Positions 2,524 to 32,858 are shown, counted from the first letter of the stretch. The stretch: 64,000 nt of DNA from an uncultured Gammaproteobacteria bacterium (GCA_964589575.1 CAZPSE010000004.1:4075-68074), one strand, 5' to 3'. Notes: generated by a model from the sequence alone, not told the origin. A program made the numbers and translations.

Positions 2524-3951
2524 AATAAACCACAAAACCACAAAACCACAAAACCACAAAACCACAAAACCACAAAACCCCATCAATCCCAAGCTAAGTT
2601 TTTTTTTGCGTTAAGCTTTCTCTTTTTAACCGCGTGCGGCGGTTCTTCCGACTCTACTCCATCATCTACTAATACAGCACCCGTTGCGAATAGCCAAAAC
2701 ATAACAGTAGACGAAGATAACAATAGGGCAATAACCCTAAGCGCAACCGATTCTGATAACAATACCTTAAGCTATACCGTAATCACTCAACCAAGTAATG
2801 GTTCGCTAACAGGTACAGCGCCTAATTTAAGTTATACCCCAAATGCCGATTATAACGGTGCAGACAGTTTTACCTTTAAAGCTAATGATGGTACGGTAGA
2901 TTTTGCAACCGCAACAGTAAATATAAGCATTAACCCAATCGCAGACGTAAACCTAAGCAATGTTAGCCAAAACGAAGGCAGTAGTGGTACAACTACAGTA
3001 ACCTTTACGCTCACTTTAGATGCTTTTGAAAATACCGCCAGTGTTGATTATGCAACCCAAGACAATACCGCAATCGCTGCGAATAATGACTATGTAGCAA
3101 AAGCAGGTACCGTAACCTTTACGGGGGGTATAACCACACAAACCATTAGTATTACGGTTAATGGCGAGGGCACCGTAGAAGACGACGAAACCTTTACTTT
3201 AAACCTAAGCAACCCCAGTAATTTACAACTGGCTAACACCAGCGCCATTGCCACTATTAAAAATGATGATGCGCCAAGGTTAAACGACACAGGCATAACC
3301 TGGGCAGGGGGATACGCTGGTGGTAATAAAACTGGCAATGACTGCACCACAACAACCATTACCGGCAACCAAGACTGTCACCAAGGGCGCGACAGCACCA
3401 ATAATGACGACACCGACGGCATGGCAGGTTTTAGCTTTACCAAGCTAGATAATAATGCAGTAGCCTTAGCAGACCAAAGCCAAACCAACCACGTTTGTGT
3501 AAAAGACAAGATAACAGGGCTAATTTGGGAGGTAAAACAAACCACAGGCACACGCAGTAACACTACTAGATACCGTTGGGGTGGTTTAACGGCTATTGGC
3601 CGTAACCATGCCAGTAAAGAAGGCACATACTATGATGATTGGAATGTACTGATAAATTACGCAAACGATACCGATAATGCCAACACTACAGATAGTGCAT
3701 TATGTGGCTTTACCGACTGGCGTGTGCCAGATAGTGAAGAATTACGATCAATAGCCCATTTAGGTAAAAGCAACCCTGCGATCGATCAAAACTATTTTCC
3801 TAATACCAAAATAAATGATGGGTATTGGAGTTCGTCGCCCATTGCTAACAACTCTCACAATGCCTGGAGACTGAACTTTAACAGAGGCCATGACAGCGGT
3901 AACATTCGTAGCAATTACGATTATATGCGTTTAGTTAGAGGCGGACAGTGA
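2524..3951 (+). CDS. DGR target 1: lipoprotein with Ig-like (Big_9/cadherin-type) domain, Calx-beta domain and C-terminal DUF1566 (CLec-fold) domain; start codon unresolved
   Basis: Frame open from 2524 to stop at 3951, far upstream of the listed ATG 3421. Lipobox LTA-C (Cys 2635-2637), APVANSQ...YTPNADYNGADSFTF, VDYATQDNTA...ETFTLNLSNP, LNDTG, DWRVP..EL, YWSSS...RLVR motifs. No in-frame ATG/GTG/TTG before the lipobox. Confidence 0.85.
   Translation, partial: NKPQNHKTTKPQNHKTTKPHQSQAKFFFALSFLFLTACGGSSDSTPSSTNTAPVANSQNITVDEDNNRAITLSATDSDNNTLSYTVITQPSNGSLTGTAPNLSYTPNADYNGADSFTFKANDGTVDFATATVNISINPIADVNLSNVSQNEGSSGTTTVTFTLTLDAFENTASVDYATQDNTAIAANNDYVAKAGTVTFTGGITTQTISITVNGEGTVEDDETFTLNLSNPSNLQLANTSAIATIKNDDAPRLNDTGITWAGGYAGGNKTGNDCTTTTITGNQDCHQGRDSTNNDDTDGMAGFSFTKLDNNAVALADQSQTNHVCVKDKITGLIWEVKQTTGTRSNTTRYRWGGLTAIGRNHASKEGTYYDDWNVLINYANDTDNANTTDSALCGFTDWRVPDSEELRSIAHLGKSNPAIDQNYFPNTKINDGYWSSSPIANNSHNAWRLNFNRGHDSGNIRSNYDYMRLVRGGQ
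2530..2577 (+). repeat. Simple sequence repeat (CCACAAAA)6
   Basis: Six exact 8-bp units; a T9 tract follows at 2599-2607. Confidence 0.97.
3823..3951 (+). repeat. DGR variable repeat VR1
   Basis: Aligns to TR with 10 mismatches at TR adenines and 2 at non-A positions; has 15 nt absent from TR. Confidence 0.92.
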
Positions 3952-3964
3952 TTTAATTTTTATT

Positions 3965-4332
3965 ATGTCAAATTATCAAAACATTCCTATCTTGCGTGAT
4001 GCACGCCTAATGATGGTTGAAGTAGAACGGACTGTAAAAGACTTTCCTCGTTATCATAAATACACCATGGGCAGTGAATTAAGAAAAAAAGCCATGGATA
4101 TTTATCAGTTTGTTAGCCGTGCCATACAATATAAGCATACCCGTGCAAAATGGGTGCAACATTTAATGCTTGCGATAGATGATTTTAAATGCCAAATACA
4201 AATAGCCAAATAGCCAAAGAGCTGAAAGTATTTAAAAGCTTTAAACAGTTTGAATTATTAGCCAAATACAGCCTTGCTTTAAGCAAACAAAGCAAAAGCT
4301 GGTTGCAAAAAATAGGTGCAACCCATGGCTAG
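3965..4332 (+). pseudogene. avd: DGR accessory variability determinant (Avd-like four-helix bundle), disrupted
   Basis: FPRYHKYTMGSELRK motif; position between VR1 and TR; 8-bp duplication TAGCCAAA (4203-4218) creates TAG at 4211; removing one unit restores a 119-aa ORF ending at 4332. Confidence 0.85.
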
Positions 4333-4358
4333 CCCAGTTGTAACGTCAACAGCCCGTA

Positions 4359-4401
4359 AAAATAGGGTTGTTAAAATAATCTATTTTAACAACCCTATTT
4401 T
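4359..4401. other. Perfect 20-bp hairpin between avd and TR
   Basis: AAAATAGGGTTGTTAAAATA-ATC-TATTTTAACAACCCTATTTT. Confidence 0.85.
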
Positions 4402-4507
4402 GTGTGCTGATTTCACTGTGCTCCCCAAACACCTGCTTGCAGGTAATAGTGAGCAAACCTACTACGTAAAAATTGTGGGTAAGCGTTTAAGTTTTGGGGT
4501 TAAACAT

Positions 4508-4621
4508 CATTGGAGTTCGTCGCCCAATGCTAACAACTCTAACAATGCCTGGAAACTGAACTTTAACAACGGCAATGACAACAATAACAATTATATGCGT
4601 TTAGTTAGAGGCGGAAAGTGA
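4508..4621 (+). repeat. DGR template repeat TR
   Basis: AAC/AAT-rich copy of the VR1/VR2 sequence; differences fall almost only at its adenines; lies between avd and RT. Confidence 0.93.
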
Positions 4622-5253
4622 AGCAGTGTGTTAGCTATAAAAGTTTGTATTGTGCATGGCAAACTTGCCGTAAAGGTAAAAGTGCAGGCACGCAAGCACA
4701 AATGTACGAAGCAAACGTGCTAGAAAACTTACATAACACACAACAGCTAATGGCAACCATGGCAAGCTATTATGGCCATGTGGCTCACGCTAAGTATTAC
4801 CGTCAAACAATGGCTATATTTAAACAATATTATTACTTGTCGTACTTATATCACCCTATCAACATAAAAAATAAGGGTTTAAAACCTTGCATAACCCCCC
4901 TGCAAGTTACAGGGTTTAAGGCGCAATGTTATTATTTTAGCCAAAGTATTAATGGCTATGCAGCACTTACCTTAATACAAAAAGGCTATTTATTGGTAGT
5001 AAGTAGTAATGATGCACAAATAATAAGCCCTATTTTTGTACGGCAAGCTAAAAAAATAACCCAAAAGCAGTTTTCTTACCCATTAAAAAGTTGGGCTTTA
5101 ATAAGGCAGCAGTTACTTAACAATAATTTAAGTTATCAATTTATAACAGAGCAGGGTTATTTAAAAGGCGGGTTAAAAAAACGTGTACTAAAAGAACTCT
5201 TTATAAACAACCATCAAATAAACCCCATATGGAGTGACAATGCCCCAAAGTAA
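4618..5253 (+). pseudogene. DGR reverse transcriptase remnant: N-terminus joined in frame to the C-terminal region, catalytic core absent
   Basis: SLYCAWQTCRKGK...YEANVLENL resembles DGR RT N-termini; SYYGHVAHA resembles their C-terminal motif; no YxDD; only 211 aa. Confidence 0.75.
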
Positions 5254-5761
5254 AACGATAATAATTTTAATGGTACTAAGCAGTGTTTTAAGCAGTACAG
5301 CACAGGCACAAACCATAAAAAACTATATAGATAACCAATGGAAAAACAGCCGTTACACTAACCATAATGACGCTACCGTAACAGACACCAAAACAGGCTT
5401 AATGTGGAAACAATGTGTAGAAGGTTTAACCGGCAATACGTGTGGTACAGGCACTGCAGTTACCACCTACACTTGGAAGGCTGCGCTAGAGTTAGCCAGT
5501 AGTACCACTTTTGCCACTTATAGCGATTGGCGGCTACCTAACATTAAAGAACTGGCAAGCCTAGTAGCGCGCGATCGTTATAGCCCTGCCATTAATAGTA
5601 GCCTTTTCCCTAATACGCCAAGTATCCGTCATTGGAGTTCGTCGCCCGCCGATGCTGGCGGCTCTGACGGTGCCTGGGGACTGAACTTTGAGCGCGGCGT
5701 TGACAGCGGTGACGATCGTATCAATGACTATTGGATGCGTTTAGTTAGAGGCGGACAGTGA
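5240..5761 (+). CDS. DGR target 2: secreted DUF1566 (Lcl C-terminal, CLec-fold) protein
   Basis: GGAG RBS before ATG 5240; signal peptide; VTDTKTGLMWKQC, DWRLPNIKEL, HWSSS...RLVRGG motifs; ends in VR2. Confidence 0.9.
   Translation: MPQSKTIIILMVLSSVLSSTAQAQTIKNYIDNQWKNSRYTNHNDATVTDTKTGLMWKQCVEGLTGNTCGTGTAVTTYTWKAALELASSTTFATYSDWRLPNIKELASLVARDRYSPAINSSLFPNTPSIRHWSSSPADAGGSDGAWGLNFERGVDSGDDRINDYWMRLVRGGQ
5630..5761 (+). repeat. DGR variable repeat VR2
   Basis: Aligns to TR with 22 mismatches at TR adenines, 2 at non-A positions, a 3-nt insertion and the same 15-nt extra segment as VR1. Confidence 0.92.
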
Positions 5762-5776
5762 TTTAATTTTTATTTT

Positions 5777-5830
5777 TACCCCGTACCGAGCAAGGCTCGT
5801 AACGTTACGAGCCTTGCTCGGTACGGGGTA
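5777..5830. repeat. REPIN-like perfect palindrome 2
   Basis: 54-bp perfect palindrome with the same REP core, lacking the central GC. Confidence 0.9.
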
Positions 5831-5847: not shown

Positions 5848-6513
5848 ATGTCTGTTAGAAAAATCACTTTTGTTAATGATGGCTATTACCATGTTTTTAA
5901 CCGTGGGGTAGATAAACGCGTTGTTTTTACCGATAGAGATGAGTTAAATTTTTTCTTAAACCGATTGAGTGATTTAAATAGCGTGGATACTTCGAACGCT
6001 TTAAAGAGTAAACGCTATAGGTTAAAGGGCGAACTTGCCCTTGCAGATACTGAAAAGTTGGTTAGTATTGTGGCTTATTGTGTTTTGCCTAATCATTTTC
6101 ATTTATTGTTAAAACAAAAAACAGACGATGGCATTAGTAAGTTTATGCAAAGGCTTGGTACGTCTTATGTGCATTTTTTTAATAAAAAACATCAGCGTTT
6201 GGGCAGTTTGTTTCAGGGTAAGTTTAAAGCTACGGCTTTAAATGGCGATTATGCTTTGGCAAAAGTTGCTAGTTACGTTAATTTAAATTTTAAGCATCAT
6301 CGTATTGACCCCAAAAAGAATATAGTTAAGTCGAGCATGGCTGAATATATTGCGCTTAATGTAGAAAACCCTATTTGTGATAGCCAAGAAATTAGCAATA
6401 TTATTGATGAGGTGGGTGGTGTAAGCCAATATAAAGAAATGGCAAAAAGTGCATCTATTGTTTTTGCCAGTAATAAAAGCACAAGTCTTTCTGAAAAAGA
6501 TTTCGAATTTTAA
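5848..6513 (+). CDS. REP-associated tyrosine transposase (RAYT/TnpA-REP, Y1 HUH family)
   Basis: YYHVFNRG, AYCVLPNHFHLLL (HUH), FQGKFK and YVNLN (catalytic Tyr position) motifs; palindromes on both sides. Confidence 0.88.
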   Translation: MSVRKITFVNDGYYHVFNRGVDKRVVFTDRDELNFFLNRLSDLNSVDTSNALKSKRYRLKGELALADTEKLVSIVAYCVLPNHFHLLLKQKTDDGISKFMQRLGTSYVHFFNKKHQRLGSLFQGKFKATALNGDYALAKVASYVNLNFKHHRIDPKKNIVKSSMAEYIALNVENPICDSQEISNIIDEVGGVSQYKEMAKSASIVFASNKSTSLSEKDFEF

Positions 6514-6517
6514 CTGC

Positions 6518-6563
6518 CGTACCGAGCAAGGCTCGTAACGCGTTACGAGCCTTGCTCGGTACG
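6518..6563. repeat. REPIN-like perfect palindrome 3
   Basis: 46-bp perfect palindrome identical to the core of palindrome 1, 4 bp after the RAYT stop. Confidence 0.9.
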
Positions 6564-6735
6564 AGGTTTTTGTGGTTAATAGCCTTTTTTGTGGCTATAA
6601 TCCGTTTCATTATTTTATTGGTTTTTTTTATGGTTTTTCTTTTTCAATTTTGGCGATGGCAATTTTAGAAAGCTCGTGTTTGCTAACACGCAAAATTGTT
6701 ACGTTTATTAAAAAGATTGGTTGAGAAATATCATT

Positions 6736-8241
6736 ATGAATGAAGAAAAGTTTAATCGTTTAATCGCTCAAGATTATTCGCACATTCCTTTAGTTCGCGC
6801 AGTCCTTGCCGATTTAGATACCCCTTTAAGCGCTTATTTAAAAGTAGCCAACGCTGCTAACAGTTATTTGTTTGAATCTGTTCAGGGTGGTGAAAAATGG
6901 GGGCGTTATTCCATTATTGGTCTGCCTTCTAAAACCGTTATTAAGGTTAATAAACACCGTATAACGATAGAAGAAGATGGTGTAGAGGTGCAAGGGGTCG
7001 ACGAAAATGACCCTTTAGCGTGGATTGAAAATTATCAAAAACAATTTGCTGTGCCAGAAATTGAAGGCTTAGATGTACTGGCCGGTGGTTTGGTTGGTTA
7101 TTTTGGTTACGATATTATTGGTTACATTGAACCCAAGCTTGCCAAGTTTGATAAAGACGATAGCGTGAATACGCCAGACATTATGTTGATGGTGAGTGAC
7201 CGCGTAATTGTTTTTGATAACCTTAGTGGTAAATTATATATCGTCGCTTATACCAATAAAGAACACGGTTATCAAAAAGGGGTGGACGAGTTAGACCGCA
7301 TTGAGCAATTGCTTGCTACAACAATTATTAGTAACGCAAATACAAAACAAGCTACTGGCGTAAGTGAAAAGGATTTTGTATCGGGCATTACTGAGCAAGG
7401 TTATAAAGACGCGGTTGATAAAGCGCGACAATATATTATTGATGGCGATGTGATGCAAGTAGTGTTATCACAGCGTTTGAGTGTTAAGTTTGATGCTGAA
7501 CCGATTGATTTGTATCGCGCATTGCGCTGTTTAAACCCGTCGCCTTATATGTATTTTATGAATATGGACGGGTTTCATATTGTGGGTTCATCGCCAGAAA
7601 TTTTGGTTCGTTTACAAAATAATCAGGTGACGGTAAGGCCCATTGCAGGAACCCGTCCTCGTGGCAAAACAGAATTAGAAGATAAAGCATTAGAGGCTGA
7701 ACTGTTAGCCGACCCGAAAGAGTTGGCGGAGCATTTAATGTTAATAGATTTAGGCCGAAACGATGCCGGCAGAGTAAGCAATACCGGTACGGTAAAACTA
7801 ACCGACAAAATGCTGGTAGAGCGTTACTCTCATGTTATGCATATTGTGTCTAACGTAACGGGTGACTTAAAAAAAGACCTAAGTGCGATAGATGTTTTAC
7901 GTGCAACCTTCCCCGCAGGTACAGTAAGTGGCGCACCTAAAGTACGTGCAATGGAAATAATAAATGAGCTAGAGCCTAGCAAACGTGGTGTTTATTCGGG
8001 CGCGGTGGGTTATTTGTCTTTTAATGGCGATATGGACGTGGCCATTGCGATTCGTACTGCAGTAATAAAAGATAACGAGCTAACCATACAAGCAGGTGCG
8101 GGTATCGTTTACGACTCTGTAGCGCAAAGTGAATGGGACGAAACCATGAATAAGGCGAGGGCGGTTATTAAAGCGGCAGAAATAGCATCGAACGGATTAA
8201 AACAACAGTCGCACTTAAACATTAAAGGGGTGAAAGCATGA
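6736..8241 (+). CDS. trpE: Anthranilate synthase component I
   Basis: [37 protein letters not shown] motifs; ATG 6736 preferred over TTG 6721. Confidence 0.96.
6991..7002 (+). repeat. Dispersed 12-mer CAAGGGGTCGAC; other copies at 10687(-), 18225, 26996(-), 32924, 36110, 44906, 48530(-), 52989, 61212
   Basis: At least ten exact copies found by eye. Confidence 0.9.
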
Positions 8242-8816
8242 TTTTAATGATTGATAATTATGATTCATTTACCTATAACCTAGTGCAGTACATGGCAGAA
8301 TTGGGTGCGGATGTACTGGTAAAAAGAAATGATGAAATCACTTTAGAAGAAGTGATTGCTTTAGCACCAAAAAAAATAGTTTTGTCGCCTGGCCCGTGTG
8401 CGCCAAACCAAGCAGGTATTTCCTTATCGGTTGTAGAAAAGTTGTCGGGTAAAATCCCATTATTAGGCGTGTGTTTAGGGCATCAAACAATTGGCCAAAC
8501 TTTTGGTGGCGACATTGTGCATGCCAGTAAAATTATGCACGGCAAAACCTCGCCCATTCATCATAAAAATACAGGTGTATTTAAAGGTTTAAGCAATCCG
8601 TTTATTGCTACGCGTTATCATTCGTTAGTGATAGATAAAAACACCTTGCCAAGTTGTTTAGACATTACCGCTTGGACAGAAAACGAAAAGGGAAAAATGG
8701 AAGAAATTATGGGTGTAAGGCATAACACTTTAGACGTGGAAGGGGTGCAGTTTCACCCAGAATCTATCCTTACGGAACACGGACACGATTTGCTTAAAAA
8801 CTTTTTAGATCGTTAA
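8238..8816 (+). CDS. trpG: Anthranilate synthase component II (glutamine amidotransferase)
   Basis: [29 protein letters not shown] motifs. Confidence 0.96.
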
Positions 8817-8833
8817 TCGCCAGGAAAATTATT

Positions 8834-9856
8834 ATGAATATCCAACAAGCCATTCAGTCGGTATTAGATAAAAAAGACTTGTCGCAAGATGAGATGTTTG
8901 CCGTAATGAAAATAATCATGACAGGGGACGCAACACCGTCTCAAATTGGTGGCTTTTTAATTGGTTTAAGAATGAAAGGTGAAACGGCCGACGAAATAAC
9001 GGCCGCCGCCAGCGTGATGCGAGAGCTGTCTACCAAGGTAGATGTAAAGGGCGATTATTTGGTCGATACCTGTGGCACGGGTGGTGATGCGTCTGGAACG
9101 TTTAACATATCTACCGTTAGCGCAATTGTAGCGGCGGCGGCTGGCGCGCAAGTAGCTAAGCATGGTAATCGTTCGGTCTCTAGCAAATCGGGCAGTGCAG
9201 ACGTTTTAGAGCGTTCTGGTGTTAATTTAAATTTGTCGGCAAAACAAGTAGCAAAATGCGTAGCAAAACTGGGCGTGGGTTTTATGTTTGCACCGCTACA
9301 CCACAGCGCAATGAAACACGCCATAGGCCCACGTAAAGAAATGGCAGTAAGAACCATTTTTAATTTATTAGGGCCACTTACCAACCCTGCAACTGCACCT
9401 AATCAAGTATTAGGTGTGTTTGACAAGCAGTGGGTAGAACCCATGGCACAAGTATTAAAATCATTAGGCAGCAACCACGTAATGGTGGTTAATGCAGAAG
9501 ACGGATTGGATGAAATAAGTATTGCGGCTAATACCACCGTTGCCGAATTAAAAAATGGAAGCATCACAACCTATACCCTCAACCCAAAAGATTACGGTTT
9601 TGAAAAATCGTCTTTAGCGGGTTTAAAAGCAAAAGATTCTGAAGCCAGTTTAGCGATAATTAATCAGGTTTTAAATAATGTGGATGGCGCAGCTAAAGAT
9701 ATAGTCGCTTTAAATGCAGGGGCCGCCATATATGTATCTGGTTTGGTTGAAAACTATCAACAAGGCATAGATAAAGCGATAGAAGTTATTGCCAATGGTC
9801 AGGCTAAAGCCACATGGCATGGTCTTGTTGCATTAACCAACTCTATGAAAGCTTAA
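8834..9856 (+). CDS. trpD: Anthranilate phosphoribosyltransferase
   Basis: DTCGTGGD, KHGNRSVSSKSGSAD motifs. Confidence 0.97.
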   Translation: MNIQQAIQSVLDKKDLSQDEMFAVMKIIMTGDATPSQIGGFLIGLRMKGETADEITAAASVMRELSTKVDVKGDYLVDTCGTGGDASGTFNISTVSAIVAAAAGAQVAKHGNRSVSSKSGSADVLERSGVNLNLSAKQVAKCVAKLGVGFMFAPLHHSAMKHAIGPRKEMAVRTIFNLLGPLTNPATAPNQVLGVFDKQWVEPMAQVLKSLGSNHVMVVNAEDGLDEISIAANTTVAELKNGSITTYTLNPKDYGFEKSSLAGLKAKDSEASLAIINQVLNNVDGAAKDIVALNAGAAIYVSGLVENYQQGIDKAIEVIANGQAKATWHGLVALTNSMKA

Positions 9857-9858
9857 TA

Positions 9859-10659
9859 ATGCCTACCCCAGATATTTTAAAAAAAATAGTAGCACGTAAA
9901 TACCAAGAAATTGAAGAACGTTCTGAATTAAGCCCAATAAATATACTAAAATCCATGGCGCACAAAGCCGACCCTGTTCGTGGGTTTATACAATCGATAG
10001 AAAATAAATTGGCTAATAATTTATCCGCAGTCATTGCAGAAATTAAAAAAGCCTCACCCAGTAAAGGCGTAATGAGAGAAAACTTTCATCCTGCCGACAT
10101 TGCTAAAAGTTATCAGCAAGGTGGTGCTGCCTGTTTATCTATCTTAACGGATAAAGATTTTTTTCAAGGTTCAGAAACCTACCTTCAAGAAGCACGCTCG
10201 GCTTGCAGTTTGCCGGTTATCCGTAAAGACTTTATCATCGAACCGTACCAAGTTTATGAAGCCAGAGCCATTAACGCCGATTGCATATTATTAATTGCCG
10301 CATGTTTAACAGACGATAAAATGAATGAACTAATAGCATTAGCGCATGAGTTTAATATGGACGTATTGCTAGAAGTGCATGACGAGCAAGAGATGGAGCG
10401 CGCTTTAAACACCCCCGCAAAATTATTAGGCATTAATAATAGAAATTTACGCACATTTAAAACGTCTTTACAAACGTCTATCGGTTTAAAAGAAATGGTT
10501 AAGGACGAAAATAGATTGTTGGTAACTGAAAGCGGTATACATACCAGTGAAGATGTTGCATTGATGAAAAAAAATCAATTAGATATTTTTTTAGTAGGTG
10601 AAGCGTTTATGAGAGCAGAAGAACCCGGCGAACAGTTGAAGCAGTTATTTTTTAGCTAA
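9859..10659 (+). CDS. trpC: Indole-3-glycerol phosphate synthase
   Basis: IAEIKKASPSKG, RKDFI, GINNRNL motifs; ATG 9859 preferred. Confidence 0.96.
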   Translation: MPTPDILKKIVARKYQEIEERSELSPINILKSMAHKADPVRGFIQSIENKLANNLSAVIAEIKKASPSKGVMRENFHPADIAKSYQQGGAACLSILTDKDFFQGSETYLQEARSACSLPVIRKDFIIEPYQVYEARAINADCILLIAACLTDDKMNELIALAHEFNMDVLLEVHDEQEMERALNTPAKLLGINNRNLRTFKTSLQTSIGLKEMVKDENRLLVTESGIHTSEDVALMKKNQLDIFLVGEAFMRAEEPGEQLKQLFFS

Positions 10660-32781: not shown

Positions 32782-32858
32782 TGGTAGTCACGAGTGAACT
32801 CGAATCACCGACCCCTACCATGTCAAGGTAGTGCTCTAACCAACTGAGCTACGCGACT
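32782..32858 (-). tRNA. tRNA-Val (GAC)
   Basis: AGTCGCG/CGTGACT acceptor stem, AGCTCAGTTGGTTAGAGC D arm, CTACC-TTGACAT-GGTAG anticodon arm, TTCGA T loop, encoded CCA. Confidence 0.96.

Follow-up and report, generated by a model that had tools for sequence, protein, structure and literature searches.

Does a set of adenine-biased repeats in a bacterial chromosome record mutagenic homing, and, if so, is the machinery that made it still at work? This question is raised by a stretch of 64,000 nucleotides (nt) of DNA from an uncultured Gammaproteobacteria bacterium (GCA_964589575.1 CAZPSE010000004.1:4075-68074; the whole stretch is hereafter called the window, and positions are counted from its first letter). 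A preliminary description, made from the sequence alone, had pointed to a footprint of adenine-specific mutagenic homing at this locus. We found that the locus is a chromosomal diversity-generating retroelement (DGR) cassette, in the order target gene 1, avd, template repeat (TR), reverse transcriptase (RT) gene, and target gene 2, and that the differences between its repeats are a true footprint of DGR-type adenine-specific mutagenic homing. As it stands, however, the locus is not an autonomous, working DGR. Most probably, this DGR, whose class is known, was inactivated recently, its variable repeats (VRs) being frozen and the footprint a fossil. The host, an uncultured bacterium of a hydrothermal-vent metagenome, is probably a gammaproteobacterium.

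Three copies of a repeat of ~110-130 nt were found on the + strand, namely VR1 (3826-3951), the TR (4511-4621), and VR2 (5633-5761). They have in common a 21-nt core at the 3' end, ATGCGTTTAGTTAGAGGCGGA, of which the 64-kb window contains exactly three copies; from shuffles, 0 would be expected. VR1 consists of 38 codons running from W to VRLVR, plus GGQ and a stop; its mutagenised part spans ~3841-3924 and is followed by the initiation of mutagenic homing (IMH) sequence at 3925-3951. VR2 has 39 codons from W to VRLVR, one more than VR1, with its IMH at 5735-5761, and the 3' flank of VR1, TTTAATTTTTATT, is common to VR2 only. The TR, which is not the end of any full-length target gene, has 33 codons from W to VRLVR (111 nt), with a mutable part at ~4526-4594 and the TR-specific counterpart of the IMH, IMH*, at 4595-4621; its in-frame peptide is WSSSPNANNSNNAWKLNFNNGNDNNNNYMRLVRGGK. 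Adenine makes up 40 of the 111 nt, and 26 of these 40 belong to 13 Asn codons (8 AAC and 5 AAT). The earlier remark that such codons diversify without creating stops is mostly correct, except that one AAA codon in the mutable part could become TAA.

Mismatches between the VRs and the TR were concentrated on TR adenines and were not spread over all four TR bases. In a MAFFT alignment, VR1 differed from the TR at 9 A and 1 non-A positions, and VR2 at 22 A and 2 non-A positions, plus a 3-nt insertion. With three codon-aware gap placements, 9-11 A and 1 non-A mismatches were counted for VR1, and 20-22 A and 2 non-A mismatches for VR2 (one-sided Fisher p from 4e-4 to 4e-5 and from 4e-9 to 2e-10, respectively). 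The counts made by eye in the preliminary description (10 A and 2 non-A for VR1; 22 A, 2 non-A, and 3 inserted nt for VR2) were close to these values. At TR adenines, G, C, and T were all seen as replacement bases, so A-to-G editing is not the cause.

The same pattern was observed in an alignment of 21 VRs, comprising VR1 and VR2 of the window and 19 VRs from related metagenome contigs. Column entropy was 1.10 bits opposite TR adenines versus 0.29 bits elsewhere (Mann-Whitney p = 5e-9), and the mutable sites carried all four bases (A 343, G 164, T 98, and C 33). The first two codon positions were randomised, while third positions remained C/T. The As of the 3' 27 nt were invariant across all 21 VRs. 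These last 27 nt are identical in the TR, VR1, and VR2, except for A4616 of the TR, which is a C in all 21 VRs; several TRs of the family likewise end in GGK where the VRs end in GGQ. A4616/C thus behaves as an IMH/IMH* marker, that is, as a fixed difference and not a product of mutagenesis, and the last 27 nt behave in the way described for the IMH and IMH* of the Bordetella element (PMC3240598). Overall, the Fisher tests, the entropy of the 21 VRs, and the invariant IMH adenines, together with the avd and RT remnants and the lectin-fold targets described below, bear out the mutagenic homing footprint that had been proposed.

Both VRs lie at the extreme C-terminus of a protein with an Lcl_C/DUF1566 domain, as in DGR targets of class 'd', and the fold is predicted to be lectin-like. 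Target gene 2 (5234-5761, + strand) is intact and encodes a secreted Lcl_C protein of 175 amino acids (aa) with a predicted C-type-lectin-like fold. The Pfam Lcl_C domain (PF07603) was recognised in target 2 with E = 5.8e-33 and in target 1 with E = 1.1e-26. The AlphaFold model of target 2 had a mean predicted local distance difference test score (pLDDT) of 86; its best PDB match was 8q4e, the C-terminal domain of Legionella Lcl, followed by many C-type lectin-like domains, and the variable residues lie in the C-terminal third of the modelled lectin-like domain.

Target gene 1 (2524-3951, + strand) is a 475-codon open frame with a lipoprotein signal (lipobox Cys codon at 2635-2637) and with Big_9, Calx-beta, and Lcl_C domains. 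No ATG, GTG, or TTG was found in this frame before 3421 (codon 300). Where the start codon is expected, there is an octamer tandem repeat, AAACCACA x 6.6 (2527-2579, + strand). The ortholog on the related metagenome contig L010 begins MQPIIQQQIAKFFLALIFLFLTAC at the position of this array, whereas the window has no in-frame ATG, GTG, or TTG there. The AAACCACA array is followed by a T9 run, and is either a start-removing lesion or what remains of a slipped-strand switch.

The avd gene is a pseudogene (3965-4332, + strand). A stop closes its N-terminal part (3965-4213) after 82 aa, the frame being broken after codon 82 by an 8-bp tandem duplication, AAATAGCC AAATAGCC (4200-4215, + strand), and its C-terminal part continues in another frame to 4332. 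The fragment matched positions 3-74 of the 104 positions of NCBIfam DivGenRetAVD (E = 5.5e-5), and removal of one AAATAGCC copy yielded a 119-aa protein that matched positions 13-106 of the 107 of Pfam bAvd.

The RT gene has been reduced to an open 211-codon frame (4618-5253, + strand), which begins at the TR stop codon. Its 211-aa product matched only itself in a search against 5.8 billion proteins and gave no match in Pfam, NCBIfam, or the PDB; it could be identified only by pairwise alignment to the RT of L002, a homologous locus that was found through relatives of target 2. This locus, in the metagenome-assembled genome GCA_013373515.1, is intact, with a target (2047 aa), Avd (124 aa), a TR, an RT (497 aa, RVT_1), and a second target (170 aa). 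By BLASTP, residues 5-47 of the remnant aligned with residues 3-45 of the L002 RT (42% identity), and residues 44-196 with residues 339-491. The whole RVT_1 core (~293 aa) is missing, including the SQ and YVDD motifs, which in L002 lie inside the RVT_1 domain at residues 60-294. The window locus therefore has no RT of the DGR clade with an intact core (YxDD and motif 4 SQ), and tblastn revealed no second RT of the same family in the 64 kb. At the deletion junction (4747-4758, + strand; codons QLMA(T)), the remnant aligns with both ...QQALQT (40-45) and AALQSM (336-341) of the intact RT, which suggests that the deletion arose between short similar sequences (ALQ-like residues). Among 20,000 shuffles of the remnant, none kept an open frame.

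The TR itself is also altered, a feature that had not been reported previously. It is 15 nt (five codons) shorter than VR1 and VR2, and the three repeats are not collinear (33, 38, and 39 codons for the TR, VR1, and VR2, respectively). The gap in the TR lies ~15 nt upstream of the IMH, at the very place where the preliminary description had compared AGC GGT in both VRs with AAC AAT in the TR. Most readable TRs of the family (18 out of 23) have 38 codons, with the pattern NGNDNNNN[R/K]NNNN. Moreover, a CGT codon that is invariant in 21 out of 21 VRs is absent from the TR of the window; the other TRs of the family have an Arg or Lys codon there. The VR1 allele of a related strain, from a different run (X3), has GAC AAC GGT where the VRs of the window have GAC AGC GGT. 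On the basis of these canonical 38-codon TRs, the invariant CGT in the VRs, and the GGT of the X3 allele, the 15-nt difference is a loss from the TR, a derived state, rather than a gain in the VRs. Indels between TR and VR that adjoin AAC, found in ~7% of DGRs, are usually explained by slippage during reverse transcription (PMC5758913). Slippage cannot make an identical non-A codon twice, however, and is thus not the source of the CGT of the VRs.

In the simplest reading, the ancestral TR would have been ...GAC AAC GGT AAC AAT CGT AAC AAT AAC AAT TAT..., and the deletion of GGTAACAATCGTAAC between AAC repeats, at a place that cannot be fixed exactly within these repeats, would have left the present ...GAC AAC AAT AAC AAT TAT.... 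The GGT was probably encoded by the template and then lost from the TR, and the AGC would be an ordinary A-to-G change at AAC, possibly favoured since Ser is common there in relatives. The lost template GGT and the A-to-G change would together account for the AGC GGT found in both VRs; of the three sources proposed for it earlier (selection, VR-to-VR conversion, or a different ancestral TR), the last fits best. With the gap so close to the IMH, it would have been carried over in any homing from the present TR. The present TR thus did not serve as template for this part of the present VRs, nor has it been copied into either VR since the 15-nt loss.

Differences in TR length were also seen elsewhere in the family, even where the RT appears intact. 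In Marinomonas balearica CECT 7378 (L034, 8772-8915), a four-fold tandem NVNFN expansion was observed, with a TR of 48 codons versus a VR of 38. The L002 TR (4398-4496) is 18-21 nt shorter than its two VRs, the TR of L030 is one codon short, and that of L035 is two codons long. The AAC/AAT-rich TR is thus itself unstable, with deletions or expansions in 5 of the 23 family members, and such changes can uncouple a TR from its VRs.

With the RT core deleted, avd frameshifted, and the TR shortened, the footprint is historical. The repeats were correctly attributed to mutagenic homing, but they document past activity and not current hypermutation: three features that define a functional DGR are lacking at the window locus, namely the RT core, an unbroken avd, and collinearity of the TR with the VRs. 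While the element was intact, and by analogy with other DGRs (PMC3240598, PMC6182149, PMC5758913), the TR would have been transcribed and copied by an RT-Avd complex into complementary DNA (cDNA), with random bases opposite adenines. The cDNA would then have replaced the 3' ends of the two genes, starting from the common 27-nt IMH, and ~13-17 Asn-templated codons would have been re-randomised on the binding face of two surface or secreted proteins with a C-type-lectin fold (Lcl_C/DUF1566). VR1 and VR2 would be independent products, both copied from an ancestral 38-codon TR. The lesions are an in-frame deletion of ~880 nt that took out the catalytic core of the RT, the 8-bp duplication that frameshifted avd, a 15-nt deletion in the AAC/AAT repeats of the TR with the loss of five codons, and the octamer repeat that now stands in place of the target 1 start codon. 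One lesion per part, together with an RT remnant that is still open, points to an inactivation that was recent on the scale of neutral decay. The homing from a 38-codon ancestral TR, the order and timing of the lesions, and the present absence of homing are all points that we infer.

Decayed cassettes were not restricted to the window. In GTDB genomes, 24 related loci were compared, and 20 of them still have an RT core adjacent to the repeats; L038 is heavily degraded, and the other three had no RT in the fetched flank. In addition, an RT-less clade with ~70-78% nt identity to the window was found, in which decay has gone further; it comprises 13 metagenome contigs (L008-L020, with L012 and L014 being duplicates of L004 and L007) and L005 from a further sample. 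All of them are without the TR, the RT N-terminus, and the RT core. An identical junction, leading from the avd 3' end to RT ...YGHISHAKYY, was present in 10 out of the 14 contigs (the regular expression was unmatched in the rest), and the secondary lesions in avd differ between contigs. The pseudogene middle of these contigs is 90-97% identical, with VRs that are near-random at A-templated positions; pairwise comparisons bearing on VR diversification after the deletion were confounded by apparent paralogy, recombination, or chimeric contigs.

Some further features of this clade were observed. Its contigs (L004, L005, L007, and L008-L020) come from more than 13 samples, and each has different VR1 and VR2 sequences, varying at template-adenine positions. 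VR2 of L005 and that of L017 are 100% identical, with flanks that are only ~90% identical. On L013 (~1500-2120), a target-2-like gene with a VR2-like allele, near the VR2 of L012, lies upstream of avd in the usual place of target 1; this arrangement could have come about by exchange between VRs or between genes, from cassettes in tandem, or through chimeric assembly.

A separate case of RT loss was found in L022 (Logan SRR29257520), which belongs to an unrelated, GC-rich lineage. Its avd and TR are intact, and its RT consists of the first ~44 and last ~60 residues, frameshifted; L021, a close relative, has a full RT. When L022 1886-2024 is compared with window 4622-4758, the RT deletion of L022 is seen to start at the same place as that of the window, directly after the conserved ...ALQ and 139 nt past the TR stop. 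This common start could be a deletion hotspot or could mark a functional TR-plus-downstream RNA that has been kept. At the other end of the gene, the final ~40 codons of the RT frame (..FITEQGYLKGGLKKRVLKELFI..; window 5050-5253, L004 797-912, L022 2105-2176) show good conservation in all the decayed cassettes, including those with an otherwise broken RT remnant. Because these codons overlap the beginning of target 2, they may carry its expression signals.

An assembly artefact would offer an alternative to inactivation, namely that the RT deletion, the avd duplication, and the short TR were created in assembling a repeat-rich metagenomic locus, the real element being intact. Assemblers do break or collapse at VR/TR repeats, and Logan contigs indeed end at VR 3' ends. 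However, a 1,840-nt Logan contig (~8.7x depth), assembled independently from the source run SRR9822617 (hydrothermal-vent metagenome), extends over avd, the TR, the RT junction, and target 2 and matches window 3925-5764 without a single difference. The avd, TR, and RT lesions that it includes are therefore not an assembly artefact. None of the three lesions falls within sequence common to the TR and VRs, and comparable RT deletions with different junctions were found in relatives from other samples; we consider this explanation highly improbable. Even less credible is an origin without any retroelement, in which ordinary mutation, together with diversifying selection on binding residues, would have driven apart three paralogous gene ends. 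Variable codons on a lectin-fold domain could plausibly be selected for diversity, and a few non-A differences are present, but such an origin is contradicted by a TR that is rich in Asn codons, is no full-length target end, and differs almost only at its A, and by third codon positions that stay C/T next to two randomised ones. Moreover, the avd and RT remnants lie exactly where the intact homolog carries these genes.

Several points nevertheless weigh against an element that is wholly inactive. In the VR1 allele of the X3 strain, 12 out of the 14 mapped differences are at TR adenines, with only 3 differences in the 100 nt of flank covered, so that diversification ran in this lineage until recently. 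Differences in length between TR and VR also occur in relatives whose RT looks intact (L002 and L034), and, given these and the ~7% of DGRs cited above, a length mismatch alone is no proof of inactivity. The in-frame, open RT remnant could in principle serve some other use. Source runs X1 and X2, which were seen as Logan contigs that drop rare variants, showed no VR variants in these contigs; X3, X4, and X7 yielded nothing beyond pieces of related strains and unrelated TRs. Finally, the portion of the genome examined is 64 kb, and an RT and Avd elsewhere could act in trans. The cassette would then be non-autonomous but in use, an intact DGR elsewhere supplying RT, Avd, and perhaps a TR, with VR1 and VR2 still being diversified. 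Such action in trans and remote targets are established for DGRs, with a decayed RT beside distal targets in Pseudogulbenkiania (PMC5758913, PMC3521204). The near-random VRs of the RT-less clade, set beside its 90-97% identical pseudogene middle, and the independent VR1 allele of the X3 strain would be in keeping with it, although paralogy, recombination, or chimeric contigs could also account for the variation among relatives. The independent RT deletions of the window and L022 both spare the TR and ~126-139 nt downstream, a length close to that of the 144-nt spacer required by the Bordetella element (PMC6182149); RNAalifold predicted no pairs in the ~140 nt after the TR in 19 loci, although this segment also codes for RT. 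Against service in trans, homing from the present TR, 15 nt short relative to both VRs, would carry the gap, avd is broken as well, and target 1 is without a start codon. The source metagenome held no second TR-like or VR-like copy at ≥80% identity beyond the three repeats of the window. The exact IMH pattern had no match in genome or viral contig collections; in metagenome contigs, it was found at 17 sites, all of them VRs, hence without a candidate master TR. A TR-peptide profile recovered 43 TR-encoded open reading frames from other DGRs, none with the nucleotide IMH of the window lineage. On balance, we regard continued diversification of VR1 and VR2 in trans as unlikely, and inactivation of the DGR as the better explanation. 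By the same token, RT-less cassettes of the family may possibly be alive, given two independent deletions that spare the TR and ~126-139 nt and a TR-less clade with randomised VRs; that they are non-autonomous DGR modules, kept diversifying by a master RT and Avd elsewhere in the genome, is a tentative proposal that we hold to be rather doubtful.

The cassette and a neighbouring gene for a repetitive extragenic palindrome (REP)-associated tyrosine transposase (RAYT) form one block, inserted between rpe-gph (1029-2393) and trpEGDC (6721-10659). The RAYT gene (5848-6513, + strand), which is a neighbour and not a part of the DGR, matched Pfam Y1_Tnp, the IS200-like Y1 transposase family (E = 5.6e-9; 36.6 bits, above the 23-bit cut-off), and NCBIfam REP_Tyr_transpos (E = 1.9e-10; 40.8 bits, below the 80-bit cut-off). 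It lies between two identical REP-like palindromes, one at 5777-5830, which is 16 nt past the VR2 stop and is also terminator-like, and one at 6518-6563, after the gene. A further copy, a perfect palindrome of 27+27 nt at 2407-2460, borders the cassette on its upstream side. In the source metagenome, depth jumps ~five-fold at the REP-like palindrome, which indicates that the palindrome is repeated elsewhere in the community or genome. Between the end of avd and the TR, a perfect 20-bp hairpin (inverted repeat with a 3-nt loop) was found at 4359-4401; it is absent from the RT-less relatives because it falls inside their deletion. An Rfam scan of the whole window gave a single match, a tRNA gene at 32785-32858 on the - strand.

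Early decay is seen in clear form at this locus, where each component has a single lesion. DGR surveys begin from the RT gene, and decayed or RT-less cassettes are therefore systematically missed, while a scan that takes TR/VR pairs as its starting point would mistake them for active hypermutation systems. A historical footprint can be told from a working element by the RT core, the avd frame, and the length of the TR and VRs relative to the canonical TR of the family. If RT-less cassettes do diversify in trans, the idea of remote targets would extend to degenerate satellite cassettes.

Decay of DGR RT genes has been described before, in that truncated or 'strongly mutated' copies were reported, for example, beside distal targets in Pseudogulbenkiania sp. 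NH8B (Schillinger et al. 2012, PMC3521204). There, as in the window, DGR-type repeats and targets adjoin a dead RT gene. NH8B differs in having an intact second DGR in its genome, which was proposed to serve all VRs, whereas for the window no second DGR is known and the length of the local TR no longer matches the VRs.

The prototype, Bordetella phage BPP-1 (mtd-avd-TR-brt), shares with the window an adenine-specific transfer from TR to VR, deduced here from the pattern of substitutions, as well as an unmutated 3' IMH with a TR-specific IMH*, an Avd, and a VR at the C-terminus of a lectin-fold protein. Unlike the window locus, it is phage-borne, has one target, and has a 144-nt non-coding spacer between TR and brt, where the RT frame of the window begins at the TR stop codon. 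BPP-1 also needs a GC-rich hairpin after the IMH; in the window, none is evident past VR1, and past VR2 there is only the 27-bp REP palindrome, 16 nt past the stop. Within the family, such a hairpin is clear past both L002 VRs and is otherwise inconsistent.

Closer likeness was found to L002 and 20 related genome loci (Thiotrichaceae, Methylococcaceae, Marinomonas, Oleiphilaceae, and others), which have the same order of target, avd, TR, RT, and target, a TR peptide of the form WSSSPNANNSNNAW..NFNN...VRLVR, and the same N- and C-terminal extensions of the RT. These loci keep the RVT_1 core with YVDD, whereas in the window nothing but the two ends of the RT remains. Target category 'd' (DUF1566/DUF823/Fib_succ_major, with CLec2 VRs; Wu et al. 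2018), of which Legionella LdtA is an example, accounts for 14% of the set (PMC5758913). About half of the targets in this category are short and have DUF1566 only, as does target 2, and the rest have adhesion-type domains, as does target 1 (PMC5758913). Like the Legionella pneumophila DGR with its LdtA, the window element is chromosomal and has lipoprotein or secreted targets with a C-terminal DUF1566/Lcl_C lectin-fold VR (PMC5758913); in L. pneumophila, however, the RT and Avd are intact and active, whereas in the window the RT core is deleted, avd is frameshifted, and the TR is short. The element thus belongs to a known class, that of the chromosomal DGRs with DUF1566/Lcl_C targets, and is a degenerate member of it.

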